Shown here one piece after another: positions 2,576-63,725 of a stretch of 64,000 nt of DNA (position 1 is its first letter; each line of letters starts with the position of its first letter). The translations under genes and the position numbers were made by a program. The stretch is from assembly GCA_951406725.2 (NCBI GenBank), contig OX597820.1, forward strand, positions 57,970,001 to 58,034,000, in the 5' to 3' direction. This stretch comes from Octopus vulgaris (lineage: Eukaryota). Under the pieces are notes generated by a model. The model was not told the origin of the DNA. It was given only the letters and a program-made list of their open reading frames with translations, and ran no database searches.

Positions 2576-2604
<29 letters not shown>

Positions 2605-2610
<6 letters not shown>

Positions 2611-4418
2611 AATAAAATAGAACATATGCATATATATAAACATATATGTACGTACCTACCTCTACATGTACATATACACGCATATATGTGTACAGGACAC
2701 CAAAAAGACGTCGAACACATAGAGAGACGAAAAACATAGACACAAACCAAGGAACAGGACAAGCAAAAAAAAAAAAAAAAAGGGATACAGGTCAATAAGC
2801 ACAACGAAAAATCCCCTTCTTCAGTCGCTAAGGTTTCATCTACTCTACGTTTCGAAGGATAAAAGCGAGACGTATCTTCGAAGAAACTTCCTTCCTGCGA
2901 AAAGCAAATCAATTAAAATTCTGAGATCTTTTCGCAGAGGGGTAAAAAATGGTAAAAAAAAAAGCAAGACGGTAACGACAGTACAAACATATAAACAGTA
3001 AAAAAATATATATAAACAGTGGAAAAATAAATATATAACAGTGAGAGACAGGACAAGGAGAACAAGATAAGAAGGGCTGTTTACGCCAGACGAAAAAAGT
3101 ATTGCAAACGCTGGATTATAGTGGACGACGAGAGAGAAGGAATGTCGACCAGTAGCCTTAGAAGGCGGGCGAGAAAAGACAGGATAGCAGTTACGACGGA
3201 AGTATCGTCGCAGATGGACGACGGGAATGGGGGAGGAGGAGCAAGAGGAGAGAGAGAAGAAGGGGAATGGTGCGAGGAGACCATGAAGAATGGTGAGGGG
3301 GAGAGAGAGAATGAAGAATGAGAGAGAGAGGAAGAGACAAGTTAAGTGAGGGAAAAAAGACGAAAAAGGGAATGGGATAGAAAGAAAGAAAGATGCAGAG
3401 TCGCGTGAGAGTTAATATCAAGGCTAACTTGATAAACAGAACAATCTTACTTAATGGGGTGCGTGCGTTTAGTCGTATAATATGTTAATAAAATAGAACA
3501 TATGCATATATATAAACATATATGTACGTACCTACCTTTACATGTACATATACACGCATATATGTGTACAGGACACCAAAAAGACGTCGAACACATAGAG
3601 AGACGAAAAACATAGACACAAACCAAGGAACAGGACAAGCAAAAAAAAAAAAAAAAAAGGGATACAGGACAATAAGCACAACGAAAAATCCCCTTCTTCA
3701 GTCGCTAAGGTTTCATCTACTCTACGTTTCGAAGGATAAAAGCGAGACGTATCTTCGAAGAAACTTCCTTCCTGCGAAAAGCAAATCAATTAAAATTCTG
3801 AGATCTTTTCGCAGAGGGGTAAAAAATGGTAAAAAAAAAGCAAGACGGTAACGACAGTACAAACATATAAACAGTAAAAAAATATATATAAACAGTGGAA
3901 AAATAAATATATAACAGTGAGAGACAGGACAAGGAGAACAAGATAAGAAGGGCTGTTTACGCCAGACGAAAAAAGTATTGCAAACGCTGGATTATAGTGG
4001 ACGACGAGAGAGAAGGAATGTCGACCAGTAGCCTTAGAAGGCGGGCGAGAAAAGACAGGATAGCAGTTACGACGGAAGTATCGTCGCAGATGGACGACGG
4101 GAATGGGGGAGGAGGAGCAAGAGGAAGAGAGAGAAGAAAGGGAATGGTGCGAGGAGACCATGAAGAATGGTGAGGGGGAGAGAGAGAATGAAGAATGAGA
4201 GAGAGAGGAAGAGACAAGTTAAGTGAGGGAAAAAAGACGAAAAAGGGAATGGGATAGAAAGAAAGAAAGAAGCAGAGTCGCGTGAGAGTTAATATCAAGG
4301 GTAACTTGATAAACAGAACAATCTTACTTAATAGGGTGCGTGCGTTTAGTCGTATAATATGTTAATAAAATAGAACATATGCATATATATAAACATATAT
4401 GTACGTACCTACCTCTAC

Positions 4419-4420
<2 letters not shown>
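2605..4420. repeat. Head-to-tail tandem repeat of an 876-877 bp unit (two copies plus a 63-bp start of a third)
   Basis: Unit start TATGTTAATAAAATAGAAC at 2605, 3481 and 4358; copies differ at only a few positions; flanked by (TA)n and (TA)n(TG)n. Confidence 0.97.
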
Positions 4421-4502
<82 letters not shown>

Positions 4503-6300: not shown

Positions 6301-6417
6301 ATATAAAATTTCCACATTTTCAAGAGGCATATATACTTAAAGGCGTCGTTTATTTCTATATTAATTGTTAGCTTGCTAATTATTTTCTGGTAGTTGTTAC
6401 TATTGCTGCTACTCTAA

Positions 6418-7188
6418 GGCGGCGAGATGGCAGAATCGTTAGCACGCCGGGCGAAATGCGTATCCGTATTTCGTCTGCCGTTTCGTTCTGAGTTCAAATT
6501 CCACCGAGGCCGACTTTGCCTTTCATCCTTTCGGGGTCGATTAAATAAGTACCAGTTACGCACTGGGGTCGATATAATTGACTTAATCCGTTTGTCTGTC
6601 CTTGTTTATCCTCTCTGTGTTTCGCCGCTTGTGGGTAATAAAAAATAGGTATTTCCTCTGCCGCTACGTTCTGAGTTCAAATTCCGCCGAGGTCGACTTT
6701 GCTTTTCATCCTTTCGGGGTCAATTAAATAAGCACCAGTTACGCACTGGAGTCGATATAATCGACTTAATCTGTTTGTCTGTCCTTGTTTTTTCCACTTT
6801 GTGTTTCGCCGCTTGAGGTTAATAAAGAAATAGGTATTTCCTCTGCCATTACGTTCTGCGTTCAAATTCCGCCGAGGTCGACTTTGCCTTTCATCCTTTC
6901 GGGATCGATTAAATAAGTACCAGTTACGCACTGGGGTCGATATAATTGACTTAATCCGTTTGTCTGTCCTTGTTTATCCTCTCTGTGTTTCGCCGTTTGT
7001 GGGTAATAAAAAATAAGTATTTCCTCTGCCGCTACGTTCTGAGTTCAAATTCCGCCGAGGTCGACTTTGCTTTTCATCCTTTCGGGGTCAATTAAATAAG
7101 CACCAGTTACGCACTGGAGTCGATATAGTCGACTTAATCTCTTACCCCAAATTTGAGGCCTTGTGCTTCCAGTAGAAAGGACCATTAC
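6418..7188 (+). mobile_element. SINE family A with four internal 183-185 bp tandem units
   Basis: tRNA-like head GGCGGCGAGATGGCAGAATCGTTAGC; GTTCTG(A/C)GTTCAAATTCC recurs at 6485, 6668, 6853 and 7036; a single tail ending GGCCTTGTGC...AGTAGAAAGG. Confidence 0.92.
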
Positions 7189-34571: not shown

Positions 34572-34820
34572 CAATTGCGAGTTCAATTCCAGGCAGTGCC
34601 TTGAATAAATAATAATAATAACAACAACAACAACAACAACAACAATAATAATAATATTAATAATAACTTCAGCTAAAAAAATACTTTAGGAATGAAAACC
34701 CAGGGTTGCGTTCGAAATTCTACCAGGACTTCTGATGAAGGCTGGAGAGTAAATCAGCCGAAACGATGTGGTAACAACAAACAAGATGAGGACACATATC
34801 CGTCCAATGTAAATAATGAA
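34572..34820 (+). mobile_element. Short repeat with B-box-like motif, (AAT/AAC)n spacer and decayed hammerhead ribozyme motif
   Basis: GAGTTCAATTCC at 34579; CTGATGA (34732) A GGCTG-loop-CAGCC GAAAC (34760); homologous to 62601-62728. Confidence 0.7.
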
Positions 34821-34821
34821 C

Positions 34822-36012
34822 TTTATTTCAGCATAAATATGTATTTGAATAAACATTTATGCAATTAGTCTTGATAATGATTTTTTAAGCAAAGTATTCT
34901 ATGAAATCGTCTTCGGCTTCGATGATTCCTTCAATGCGGGCCCGAAAACGCTGGCATGCTGACACTATATGGTTCTTAGTTATTTCGGATAACACCTGGA
35001 CGACGGAAGCCTTCAGTGAAGCTATGGTATTATGAGGATGACGATGAGTCTCCCTTTCAACAGCGCTCCACACGTAGTAGTCCACGGCGTTGAAATCTGG
35101 CGAGTTTGGAGGCCAGCATATTGGATGCTACATAATCGAAAAGATTGTTTGACAACCATTCTTGGGTGCCTAGGGTTGTGTGAGAAAGTGATGAACCTTG
35201 TTGAAACACGTATGGACCTCCATTGCATATTTCATCAATCCAGGGCTTGATAACAGTTTCCAGTATCTCAGTATATCCTGCAGCATTAATTCTAGGACCC
35301 CGTGGAAAAATGCGGGGAGGCATCACATGACCTTTGCTACTCACCATTTCTAAAACCATCACAGTTGCTGGAAATTTCGTGTGCATCCCTCTGGGTACAG
35401 CAGAAGGCTCTGAACATAACCACCTGTCATTTCTTGTTAGACTTTTGATCGTGGGACAAAAACCGAAGCATTCCTTGTTCATGAGAGTTTTTTCACTTTG
35501 TTAATTAAGCGTTTTGAACGGATGAGACAGTTTTCCTGTGTCTTTGCATACACGAAATGGCCTTTCCTCATTACATAAGACTTGTACCAAATGTCACGAT
35601 GTACACAATTCTGATAGAGTACTCTGACACCCGGAATTCTTTGGCAATAGACCTCATTGATCTTTTGGGGTTTTTCATTGATAATGTATAGAACATGCAT
35701 AAATTCCAGTGTCCCTTTAGTGTCTTAGCGTTGTGAATGATTTTTCTCTTTGATGCAGATGAAACAATACCATCACATGCCCCCAATTCCAACCGAACTT
35801 TGTGTACAAATGATCTTGCTACATTTAGGAAGTTGCTAATTTCTAAATAACTGTGGTTTACGAGTATAGCAACTATGACTGCGTGTCTTTTTATTTCTTG
35901 AGTTAGCATGACATCTTGAAGGGATTATCTGAAACGCAAAAATGATACATTAAATAATTTGAAGGTGTAATGAACTAAAAACGAAATGTTTTCAAATACC
36001 CCTCACACTTTG
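34822..36012 (-). mobile_element. Decayed DD37D (maT-type) Tc1/mariner transposon
   Basis: Frameshifted transposase from MLTQEIKRHAVIV (35909) through NDRWL, KFPATVMV, YVFQQ(G) and WPPNSPDFNAVDYYVWS to GIIEAEDDFIE; 37 residues separate the second and third catalytic positions after correcting one inserted base; 5' end CAAAGTGTGAGG abuts TA; 3' TIR missing. Confidence 0.92.
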
Positions 36013-42369: not shown

Positions 42370-42912
42370 AGTGATATTTGGAGTAGTTGGTTCTGAGAGC
42401 TTGTTCTTGAGTGCTGCACACTAATGCCTCAGTGAGCCCTTTTTAAGTCTCCTTTCTGCAGCCATTGCTAGTTTCTATTCCAATCAATCCTATCTTTATT
42501 CTTCAAGAACTGGCTGTACATTTTCTTGTCCTGCCAAATTTTCTTCATCTGCTCTCTGGTCTTAAATTGTGTTGGATCTACAGCTTCGTTCACTTTTAAG
42601 GTTCGCTGCATTTTAACTTCTCCAATCATTTCCTCCTTACGTCCCTTGACATACCAAGCCAGGCTATTCTCCTCTTCCCTTACACAACCTTCACAACTCA
42701 ACAATCCCTGTCCTCCTTTCCTCATTACATACAATCGTGACACATCACTCTTGAGGTGTAGTTCCTTGTTCATTGTCATTAATTTACGTGTTCTCCGGTC
42801 TATCTCTTGTAATTCTTGCTTCTTCAAAGATACTATTCCTGCCCCATATTTCATCAAAGCAACTGCTCACGTGTTAATTGCTCTAATCTTATAATGGCCA
42901 TTTAGCTTCGAT
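42370..42912 (-). mobile_element. R4/Dong-like LINE fragment (post-RT region)
   Basis: KYGAGIVSLKKQELQEIDRRTRKLMTMNKELHLKSDVSRLYVMRKGGQGL, then WLQKGDLK and QEQALRTNY remnants. Confidence 0.88.
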
Positions 42913-57430: not shown

Positions 57431-57674
57431 TGTATATATATATATATATATATACACGCACACATACAAAGATAAATTGATAGATACAATTGAGTGGGCA
57501 AACAAAAATATGAGACACAGCCTAGTGCTTTTTTATGTACTTATTCTATTAGTTTGTTCTTGTGAAACCAGTAAGTTATGTGGATGTAAATAAATGAACA
57601 GCAGTTGTGAAGCAGTGATGAGGGCGAAACACAGAGACAAAGACACACACATACACTTACATATATACATATAT

Positions 57675-59022
57675 ATACGTATATTGAGCTCAGCTTCAAG
57701 GGATAGGTTGTAGGTGACGGTAGAGCCAAGATAGGTAAACTTCTCCACCTCCTGTAGTCTGTGGTCTCCAATATGTATGTTTGGGATGTCGTCCGATGTA
57801 GCCTGAACCATGATGTTGGTCTTCTTGAGGCTGATAATTAAGCCAAAGTTGCCAAATGCTTTCTCAAAACAGTTGATGAGCCTTCGTAGGCCTTCTGTGT
57901 GTGATACCAGAGCGGCATCATCAGCAAATAGCATCTCCTTGATCAGGACGCTTCTGATTTTGGTCTTGGCACGCAGACGCGAGAGATTGAACAGTTTCCC
58001 ATCACTTCTACTGCGCAGAAACACTCCATCATCTGATGTCTCAAAGGCATGTGACAACAGTAGCGAGAAAAAGATGCCAAATAATGTAGGAGCAAGGACA
58101 CAACCTTGCTTTACCCCATTTTCTTTTATTTGGAAGGCAGCTGATGTTGAACCATTGTGCTGTATGGTGCCTTGCATATCAGCATGGAAAGATTTGATGA
58201 TTCTCAGCAGCTTTGGTGGACATCCGATTTTTTGGAGCAGGAGGAAGAGGCCTTTTCTACTTACCAAGTCAAAGGCCTTTGTCAGATCAATGAAGGCCAT
58301 ATATAATGGCATTTTCTGCTCCCTGGACTTCTCCTGAAGTTAGCGTAAGGAAAATATCATGTCAATAGTTGATCTGCTTCTTCTAAATCCACACTGCGAT
58401 TCTGGATAAATTCGAGAAGCAATTAGTTGCAGTCTGGACAGGTTAATGCGAGCAGAGGCCTTTCCAACAGTGCTTAGAAGAGATATTCCACGGTAATTGT
58501 TACAATCACCACGGTCACCTTTGATTTTGTAAAGCGTAATGATATTAGCATCCCGCATATTCTGAGGGACTGTACCCTCTTCTCAGCACTGACACAGAAG
58601 CTCATGAATGTGCCGAAGCAGGATGGTGTTCTTGCCGGTTTTGATGATCTCTAAGGGGATGCCGTCTTTTCCCGGAGCATTGTTACTTGCTAGGGAGTCA
58701 ATAGATTTGGTGAGCTCTGCTATAGATGGCAGACTGTCAAGTTCACACATGACTGGCAAGATCTTGACACCCTCGATTGCAGCCTCAGCTACCATGGTCT
58801 CTCGTGAGTAGAGATCCTGGCAGTACTCCATCCATGTACCCATTTGCTTGCTTTGGTCCTTAGTGAGATCCCAGTAGTTGATTTTAGAGGGGCTGAGTTG
58901 GTTGCGGATGGACCGAGGGCCTTCTTCAAACCGGCATACATCCCACAGGAGTCGCCACTGTCAGCAGCTGACTGGCTACTCTGACAGATTTCCTGTCAAT
59001 ACCCATTTGCAGTGTCTGGCAG
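57675..59022 (-). mobile_element. RTE/BovB-like LINE reverse transcriptase fragment, truncated at both ends
   Basis: GMYAGLKKALGP, APGKDGIP, KGDRGDCNNYRGISLLS, YPESQCGFR, AFIDLTKAFDLV, GVKQGCVLAPTLF, MLFADDAAL and FTYLGS in order, with a few stops and frameshifts. Confidence 0.97.
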
Positions 59023-61619: not shown

Positions 61620-62464
61620 TTCAGTATTACGTGTTAAAAGTGAAACAAAAACATTTCTCTATTTTATGTCAGATACTTTCACTTTAACAATAAAAATAAT
61701 AATAACAATTGAATTATATGTAGTAATAATTAAAATTAAACTAAATTATAATATAATCGTAACATAACAAAAGTAAAAATAGTAATTGGTATAAAATTGC
61801 ATCACTGACTACGAACTTGAATCAGCGGTTTCACATGAATGGGAATAAATTAAAAATAAAATTAGCGTGCAGAAATGGAATAGTCCAGATGGATAATAAA
61901 AAATTAAATTGAAGAAAAAACTATTGTCTATAAAGTATGCAATGTAGAGAAAAAGATTTGAACACATGGAGGAAAGAACTTTCGAAAAGCGTCTTGGTGG
62001 CGACTATGAAAGATATCTAATCAGAGGCAGTAAATTCGCCACAATAGAAGCAAGGTTCGAATCAACGGAGTGTGCAAGGGAGTACTCGACTCGAACTTGT
62101 AAAGTGGAAATATTTTATTTTTACCTTTATTTCTGGGACATAGGACGTCTCGGAAAAAAATTGAAAATGCCCCCCCCCCCGAAGTAGAGGTAGGCTGGAT
62201 TGTAGCCACACTTCTATACAAGAGGGAGAACAAGATACAATTGATCGAAATTACAAGAGACGGGCTAACAATTCCAGCTGTTATATATTTTGAGTATTGT
62301 TATCACTGGCGATATCAAGATATAACTTTGTAATTTGTATTTTATGTGTAGATGTATATACAGATGTACATGTAATATGTACACATATATATATACACAT
62401 ATATACATGCACTAGCACTATGACCCGGCAACGATGGGTCTTTAATGCTAGTATATATATAAAG

Positions 62465-62601
62465 GTGTGTGTTAAGAAGCTTGCTTCCCAACGACATGGT
62501 TCCGGCTTCATTCCCACTGCGTTGCACCTTGGGCAAGAGTCTTCTAGTATAGCCTCTGGGCGACCAAAGCCTTGTGAGTGGATTTGGTAGACGGAAACTG
62601 A
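62465..62601 (+). mobile_element. SINE family B head, truncated
   Basis: AAGAAGCTTGCTTCCCAAC...GTGAGTGGATTTGGTAGACGGAAACTG, fused directly to the next repeat. Confidence 0.85.
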
Positions 62602-62728
62602 AACCCAGGTTCGAAATTTCCCCAATACACCTGATGAAATCTGGAGGGTATATCAACTGAAACACTGTGTTCACAACAAACAAGATGAGGAAAAATAGTC
62701 GTCAATTATAAATAGTGTAAATAATGTT
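62601..62728 (+). mobile_element. Second copy of the hammerhead-bearing short repeat
   Basis: AACCCAGGTTCGAAATTTCCCCAATACAC-CTGATGA...GAAAC-ACT-GTGTT...ACAACAAACAAGATGAGG, homologous to 34695-34820. Confidence 0.72.
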
Positions 62729-63725
62729 CAACAAGGCTATTACTTCACAAATATCAACCAGAACTGTTAGAAGAACGCTTGTAGAATACGGTCAAAAAAG
62801 GCTGTAAAGCCAAAAAGAAGCCGTGGGTTTCTGAAGCGAATATGGAAAAACGTCTTCAGTGGGCCAAAAACCACTCAAATTGGACCAGTGAGCCATGGTC
62901 GAAAGTCATATGATCTCATGAAAGTAACTAAGAGGTAAGATAGAACATGTATTCGATCAACATATAAACTTAATGTAATTGGTTTGTTGCCCAAAATATA
63001 TCAAAAAGTGTCAACATAAAGCTAATACTATTTTTCGTGTTTTTGCTCAGTTTTTTTTCATGTTTTCGGTGCTTCTGGTGCAACTTTCGTTCGTCGCAGA
63101 GTTGGGGAAGCATTTAAGGCTGAATGTTTGGTACCAACCGTAAAACATGGGGTGGTTCTATCATGGTGTGGGCCTGCATGTTTGCCACAGGATCCGGAGA
63201 AATGTTTTTATGTCACGGAAGGATAAATTCAGCTACCTATGATTCTATGTTAGTAGATTTTTTAGAGCCATCAAATTGCATCCAGTAGTTTCAAAAAACA
63301 GTGTTATCTTTCAACAGGACAACGCTCCATGTCATATAGCAAAGAATACTCATCAATGGTTTGAGACACAGTGTATTATTCCCATGGACTGGCCAGCGCA
63401 AAGTCCCGATCTAAATCTGATCGAACACCTATGGGGAACTCTTGGTGATGTTATCAGGAACACAACCATTAACAATAAAGAGCATTTGTACCATAAGTTG
63501 AGAGAAGAATGGAATAAAATCACGCCTAGCACCTGCAAGAAACTAGTCGGTTCAATGCCTGACCGTATAAAAGCGGTAATTGATGCTAAAGGAAGGTCAG
63601 CTAATTATTAAAACTAATGTATATTGTGAAATATACCATAATCTACAATGTGCATGAGTTTCATTGACATTGATATAGCAGAACCCGAAAACATTGGAGT
63701 GGCCTAATACTTTTGGCCAAGGCTG
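62729..63725 (+). mobile_element. 5'-truncated, decayed DD34E Tc1 transposon with an intron
   Basis: STRTVRRTL, KKKPWVSEANMEKRLQWAK, WSKVI*SHES, PTVKHG, GSIMVWAC, FQQDNAPCH-...-WPAQSPDLNLIE (34 residues D to E); right TIR GTGGCCTAATACTTTTGGCCAAGGCTG followed by TA. Confidence 0.95.

Follow-up and report, generated by a model that had tools for sequence, protein, structure and literature searches.

A hammerhead repeat with a tRNA-like head in Octopus vulgaris is the terminal repeat of a Penelope-type retrotransposon

A 64,000-nucleotide stretch of the Octopus vulgaris genome (the window) contains two copies of a short repeat in which a minimal hammerhead ribozyme motif is found, in one copy downstream of a sequence resembling the B box of RNA polymerase III (Pol III) promoters. 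What kind of element carries this combination, and how is it copied? A first-pass annotation, made from the letters of the window alone, had read the repeat as a non-autonomous, ribozyme-processed family, SINE-like or retrozyme-like. Hammerheads are also known from Penelope-like elements (PLEs): Poseidon_Ac (PAc) of Anolis carolinensis, of the Penelope/Poseidon type, nicks AT-rich DNA, starts reverse transcription internally at its tail and has protein-assisted hammerhead cleavage, according to the consulted parts of its description (PMC11167929). Here we show that the octopus repeat is the terminal repeat (pLTR) of an element encoding a reverse transcriptase (RT) and an endonuclease, not a separate family. 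The annotation was right to connect a type-I minimal hammerhead with Pol III boxes and to tie it to Penelope pLTRs; the free-standing SINE or retrozyme that it proposed gives way to clipped pLTRs of a coding Penelope-type element.

The window copies and their family

The B box, AAT/AAC spacer, hammerhead core, stem II and GAAA named in the first-pass annotation all sit where it had placed them (Table 1). In the first window copy, the core CTGATGA lies at 34732–34738, stem II at 34740–34745/34754–34759 and GAAA at 34760–34763; stem II is intact, and stem I and the triplet (GAT) are mutated. The second copy, at 62.6 kb, keeps stem I (ACAC/GTGT) and has lost stem II. The two align over 109 nt at 77% identity (34710–34818 with 62609–62717), and their common part begins just past the ATG and reaches the 3′ end. 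The second copy had been counted as a member with a B box, but it has neither B box nor head, adjoins a different SINE (62461–62603) and has only the hammerhead part in common with the first. Its candidate 'second B box' was rejected: those letters lie between ATG and stem I and are not the B box of a head. The annotation had also held that the two copies decayed differently. They did lose different stems, I in the first and II in the second; however, the first belongs to subfamily A and the second to subfamily B, so their differences are partly inherited and not due to decay alone. Both are 5′-truncated, decayed pLTR ends of one abundant Penelope/Poseidon-type retrotransposon, and with their non-canonical triplets (GAT and ACT) they are probably dead, inert relics, as had been supposed. 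Rfam searches of the window, the repeat and an intact head gave no hammerhead or tRNA match (for the whole window, none among the matches listed, 150 of 244).

Table 1 Coordinates of the two repeat copies in the window
Feature	Position	Strand	Basis
3′ remnant of tRNA-like head, subfamily A, 5′-truncated, A box lost	34574..34603	+	B box GAGTTCAATTCC at 34579–34590; full heads in other copies
(AAT/AAC)n linker, variable length	34604..34667	+	Sequence and fetched copies
In-frame ATG, predicted ORF start, 39 nt upstream of the base that precedes the hammerhead core	34692..34694	+	24-copy majority frame
Decayed minimal type-I hammerhead with mutations in the 5′ strand of stem I and in the triplet (GAT replacing GTT) and an intact stem II; cleavage predicted after 34767	34726..34772	+	
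AC-rich stretch ending at the first of two family 3′ ends (tail-less type), predicted reverse-transcription start	34773..34818	+	Copies, and analogy with consulted parts of PMC11167929
Second copy, subfamily B, 5′-truncated downstream of the ATG, no head, tail-less, core 62631–62637, stem II broken, triplet ACT	62602..62726	+	

Other repeats occupy the same window. Two SINE-like families (62461–62603 and 6415–7187) have about ten window copies each, and one of the two forms a 183-bp tandem at 6466–7139. A stretch of about 876 bp has recently been duplicated in tandem at 2599–4440 (98% identity). The segments at 57533–58960, 42468–42866, 35057–35500 and 62750–63611 we take to be broken RT (LINE) and Tc1/mariner-like transposase fragments.

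Exact 17-mers from the repeat were counted across the 2.8-Gb genome: 13,259 just after the cut site, 9,404 in the core, 6,023 for stem II-GAAA-GUU and 5,817 in the head, against 0 for reversed-control 17-mers. Upstream, exact words gave 1,494 matches for the UTR just ahead of the head (a word with two Y) and 858 for the endonuclease. From the 17-mer counts and a divergence of about 7–9% among short copies, we infer tens of thousands of copies in the genome. Complete short units among the fetched copies begin with a head (about 75 nt, A and B boxes included), followed by an (AAT)n linker and the hammerhead part, with a tail in some. We anchored 90 copies on the head (the first 92 listed on one contig, C1, minus two close neighbours). 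The hammerhead part lies at most 450 nt downstream in 69 of them, which upholds the proposed linkage of the two modules, and an inverted piece lies upstream in 50, giving head-to-head inverted pairs. The tail is present in 39 of 90 copies, the family having two fixed 3′ ends. The arrangement is mostly solo or head-to-head, with occasional direct tandems (L208 and L199).

Several loci depart from this plan. At L208:1515–2363 (oriented), hammerhead, tail and ORF start form a direct tandem of units of about 218 bp, which would allow two hammerheads to pair in cis. Six UTR–head junction matches about 150 bp apart make up a small pLTR-derived tandem array at G000:C2:16238320–16239091. In L042, L043, L051, L002, L070 and L205, 3′ ends and ORF pieces of another LINE, within or upstream of the (AAT)n linker, separate head from hammerhead; this LINE resembles what we take to be an R4/Dong-type element targeting AAT repeats. 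Dong-R4 is listed as active (PMC13282606).

The long copies place the short repeat within a larger unit. The head stands directly after a stop codon, about 33 nt on, in 18 of 18 long copies. At 40 UTR-anchored loci (38 in listing order plus two chosen variants), the head motif comes next in 35 and the hammerhead part is found in 37. A tandem junction from tail to ORF has 92 exact matches, and the tail directly precedes the ORF in 24 of 30 junction loci. The order of the whole unit is thus tRNA-like head, (AAT)n, AUG, minimal hammerhead, tail, a frame of 835 codons for RT and endonuclease, stop, and head again. Because the repeat adjoins the stop of the RT–endonuclease frame and precedes its start, and because short and long copies fall into common subfamilies, the label 'non-autonomous' is not supported. 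A separate SINE lineage was looked for and none was found: between 77 short and 67 long copies of subfamily B there was no fixed difference over 234 columns, and the strongest contrast, at head position 64, was one of frequency (P 0.005, uncorrected). The short copies in this comparison had been selected through an exact match to a word from the head, a choice that reduces divergence in their heads. For subfamily A, tblastn found no ORF within 1.5 kb of 30 loci; one locus of this subfamily, L317, has 900 nt of ORF. Repeat annotation would call the short copies SINEs and the long ones Penelope, though they are one element.

Reading frame, element class and hammerhead

The open frame of 835 codons is that of a 24-copy majority and starts at the ATG upstream of the hammerhead. 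The distance from ATG to core has modes at 33, 39 and 60 nt in three subfamilies and is divisible by three in 224 of 258 copies; that from core to tail is so in 70 of 95, and a homolog (P0003) reads through its own hammerhead in the same frame. The third and more diverged subfamily, seen at L329:3017–3330, has more in-frame sequence separating ATG from hammerhead, and its head is decayed. Two loci carry an inverted GIY-YIG-like frame, and a search with it returned 4,980 candidates. One long copy, L091, has an open frame of 569 amino acids. The element's protein gave an RVT_1 match (E 2.7e-6) below the Pfam cut-off. RT was found in 2,735 homologs among 7,990 scored, and GIY-YIG in some of them (for example P0069); Pfam gave no match for the endonuclease piece, and no solved structure was matched. 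Read from the translations and judged by definitions in the consulted parts of published Penelope/Poseidon descriptions, a DKG motif and a CCHH motif with two Cys inside GIY-YIG are present and the Zn-finger linker between RT and endonuclease is absent. The pLTR hallmarks are there as well: partial tandems, an inverted 5′-truncated partner, a tail of 30–40 bp and a hammerhead in the pLTR. The element fits a Penelope/Poseidon PLE, an assignment made on motifs rather than on a tree. Four contig sets cover one locus, L219, with no GT–AG joint among them; contigs of this kind cannot show absence, start, strand or level. Penelope-like ORFs were also met on bacterial and archaeal MAG contigs (L437–L450), most likely as eukaryotic contamination.

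The hammerhead that the window copies hold in decayed form is whole at the level of the family: the core is conserved, compensatory changes occur in helices I and II, and an NUH triplet (absent from both window copies) and a palindromic helix III are present. The family triplet is GUU, of the GUH form looked for, with CGTT following GAAA in 107 of 203 copies and CpG decay of it in 50 more. Covariation was examined in 23 sequences, comprising 21 other elements (26 found, five near-duplicates or variants dropped) and two subfamilies. Both stems covary: paired cells number 67 of 69 in stem I against 30.9 in shuffles, and 81 of 92 in stem II against 56.8, values reached by 0 of 5,000 shuffles for either stem. 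Single-strand folds of the region are no better than shuffles (z −1.2 to +1.8), as a fold formed only by dimers would lead one to expect; we did not use them as evidence. Cleavage by the hammerhead is predicted only for a dimer or where a protein assists. Eight motifs resembling the core but unrelated to the family (L301–L308), with no PLE ORF within 3.5 kb, gave no control.

If the ribozyme processed the RNA that is inserted, copies should begin at its cut site. We tested this as a candidate start and rejected it: 86 of 90 copies anchored downstream of the cut run through it, four end 1–5 nt after it (two of these being internal deletions) and none begins exactly there. The insertions therefore come from uncut RNA, and the description 'ribozyme-processed' is not supported. 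The same count weighs against a retrozyme, in which tandem transcripts would be cut by the hammerhead, circularised and copied, the circle rejoining the AUG to the body of the ORF. Such a model has been proposed for PLEs (consulted parts of PMC4209133), and the intact GUU hammerhead with its covarying stems and the few direct tandem arrays (L208) would suit it. Yet most copies are solo or head-to-head, where non-LTR retrozymes are defined by head-to-tail tandems of at least two hammerhead units, and the main substrate of the anole Poseidon is unprocessed RNA (consulted parts of PMC11167929). We consider the retrozyme reading highly improbable for this family.

The tRNA-like head and the 5′ ends of copies

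Complete heads have A and B boxes at tRNA spacing, so the A box missing from the first window copy is present upstream in the family. Among ten genomic tRNAs compared, the best match is tRNA-Arg(TCG) (z 7.5–7.8; 43–46 of 73 positions identical), with Arg-TCT and Thr-AGT close behind. ARAGORN found no tRNA in 30 loci. The two boxes remain at consensus while the pairing of the acceptor and T stems has been lost. Neither box was found beside 26 related hammerheads in pLTRs. In L343:455–505 (minus strand), the 23 nt of UTR just before the head repeat its start in inverted, degenerate form, which suggests that the tRNA piece was captured through a fold-back or inversion event. The tRNA piece is likely to be a Pol III promoter, possibly for the whole protein-coding element.

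The 5′ ends of the 90 head-anchored copies, in head coordinates, cluster at the head start. Between −12 and +4 lie 47 of them, 10 at −6; about ten more, scored at −13 to −20, extend into an inverted head; a further 22 fall within the head, downstream of +4; and only 11 copies have UTR or ORF upstream. Copies that pass the head run on for a median of 390 nt (38 copies), so the loss per base is tens of times greater where the head begins. Genome-wide, perfect fold-back junctions at −6/−7 number 510 and read-through junctions 415, the latter counted with a slightly longer pattern.

As a rival reading of the pile-up, an ordinary Poseidon transcribed by Pol II could carry the head as a passively captured SINE fragment, with copies ending there through RT stalling and fold-back at a hairpin. 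The long RNA does offer one: UTR −23 to −3, the degenerate inverted copy, can pair with the head start (−23 to +18; −13.4 kcal/mol), and this modelled structure could stall RT and mimic a start site. Moreover, 14 of 30 ends at −6 are fold-back junctions, and known Penelope promoters, those of Drosophila Penelope and Chlamys-3, have their start site and a spliced intron within the pLTR, in the consulted parts of the literature. The junctions at the hairpin itself point the other way. Fold-back at the outer arm is seen in none of 30 read-through copies, 29 of which run on beyond −23, and almost no ends lie between −7 and −13. Such a pattern would follow from a hard RNA end at −6, though stalling of RT is still compatible with it. 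The retention of both boxes at consensus while the acceptor and T-stem pairing is lost also argues against a passive fragment.

A further argument comes from T4 terminator runs. The sense strand of the 2,925-nt majority has none, where 4.6 would be expected in the ORF given its protein (P 0.005) and 4.2 by base shuffling (P 0.012). Single copies have a few (nine in 26.4 kb over 17 copies; the long copy L091 has three). Controls from other organisms were 94 related loci, 75 of them with enough ORF and some near-duplicates; these 75 ORFs had 613 T4 runs against 545 expected, and among the 24 of at least 2 kb none was free of T4, in a test that sets a majority sequence against single control copies. 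LINE and Tc1 ORFs of the host genome were too short to serve. One control, L365, is low in T4 runs (1 against 5.1 expected) and lacks a tRNA-like head downstream of its stop. The element is likewise free of G4 runs, as are many controls. The absence of T4 over the whole unit, unlike in the controls, is a further point against the Pol II account, which we hold to be unlikely. Together, the pile-up of 5′ ends, the reading on without fold-back and the absence of T4 point to the head as a working Pol III promoter, and we think it probable that the element is of Penelope/Poseidon type with a tRNA-derived head serving as Pol III promoter in its pLTR, with a start at about −6.

From this reading we draw a more tentative proposal: an autonomous coding retrotransposon may live on Pol III, its captured tRNA promoter giving a terminator-free RNA of 2.9 kb that would be both translated into the RT–endonuclease of 835 residues and used as template, spawning tens of thousands of SINE-like copies by internal priming. 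The probable reading itself has Pol III starting at about −6, at a G after T, and able to read the full 2.9-kb unit, since T4 is missing from its sense strand. By analogy with the anole Poseidon, the element's RT would start internally at two tail sites. Starting in the first pLTR, it would run off the 5′ end of the RNA after about 250–300 nt and leave the SINE-like short copies, often doubled where the end of the cDNA folds back on a GCCC/GGGC palindrome; starting in the downstream pLTR, it would give the longer copies that bear ORF. The predicted hammerhead cut falls some 25 codons into the ORF, and most insertions probably do without it. The literature search gave no precedent for an uncapped Pol III RNA encoding a protein of 835 residues.

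The protein could alternatively come from Pol II read-through, with solo pLTRs transcribed by Pol III as their own templates: a true SINE mobilised by a Penelope RT. Short head-bearing copies are about fourfold more numerous than UTR-bearing ones and have both boxes and the first RT start, the tail is present in 39 of 90, and the 30 subfamily A loci had no ORF by tblastn within 1.5 kb, all of which would suit such a division. But the 77 short and 67 long subfamily B copies have no fixed difference over the 234 columns, ORF-bearing subfamily A copies exist (L317), and the lack of T4 in the ORF would be left unexplained. In addition, the anole Poseidon template needs the first 172 nt of the ORF (consulted parts of PMC11167929), and solo copies here stop at about +118 or +154. 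We regard this two-source scheme as rather improbable.

Relation to known elements

In most respects the element resembles PAc, with which it has in common a single ORF for RT plus C-terminal GIY-YIG, partial tandems, a hammerhead over the ORF start with the cut in the coding region, two 3′ ends at about 111–154 nt into the ORF that define a tail, and an AC-rich stretch there. It differs in its AUG, which lies upstream of the whole hammerhead, in its sense strand without T4 runs, and in its head, as the consulted parts of that paper describe no tRNA-derived head carrying A and B boxes in PAc (PMC11167929). The ribozyme itself shows no difference from the minimal hammerheads of metazoan PLEs in the consulted parts of their description (PMC4209133): a CUGANGA core, an unpaired base before helix II, G10.1–C11.1, no helix III or loop 3, a palindromic CG and NUH. 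That source also lists CGUU for Lottia and opposite-strand pairs 100–700 bp apart; the one supplement file consulted mentions neither octopus nor tRNA.

Other repeats join a Pol III promoter to a ribozyme or to a terminal repeat. Schistosoma Sm-alpha likewise has a Pol III promoter followed by a type-I hammerhead; it is non-coding, often tandem and with shown cleavage, whereas in octopus a coding element has the unit as its terminal repeat, and copies are uncut at the ribozyme (consulted parts of PMC6765202). The TRIMs Helenus, Ajax and Cassandra have captured a tRNA- or 5S-derived Pol III promoter in a terminal repeat but are non-autonomous LTR elements, unlike this autonomous PLE with a long ORF (consulted parts of PMC10886601). 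Non-LTR retrozymes are also short hammerhead-bearing repeats derived from PLE pLTRs; they form head-to-tail tandem arrays, and the consulted parts of their description report no tRNA head and sample no mollusc (bioRxiv 10.64898/2026.07.22.740005). As in tRNA-derived SINEs, the octopus head has A and B boxes, but no separate non-autonomous lineage of short copies was found.

Octopus SINEs named OR1, OR2 and OK were reportedly described by Ohshima and Okada in 1994. A 2026 octopus repeat annotation mentions no ribozyme in the part consulted. The literature search, whose scope left aside Repbase, Dfam, bioRxiv supplements and subscription papers, found no tRNA-derived promoter in an autonomous PLE. 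Hammerhead, tail, inversions, ORF overlap and short repeats derived from pLTRs are already described for Penelope elements; the tRNA head is the one unusual part of an otherwise known element class.

If the proposed reading is true, a coding element has taken on the promoter of a SINE, and there is a direct route from Penelope elements to SINEs. Should the ORF be made from Pol III RNA, the rule assigning Pol III promoters to non-coding parasites would be broken. A Pol III-headed family for which a start base is predicted, with run-off copies in the thousands, makes testable both how PLEs are transcribed and what their hammerheads do.
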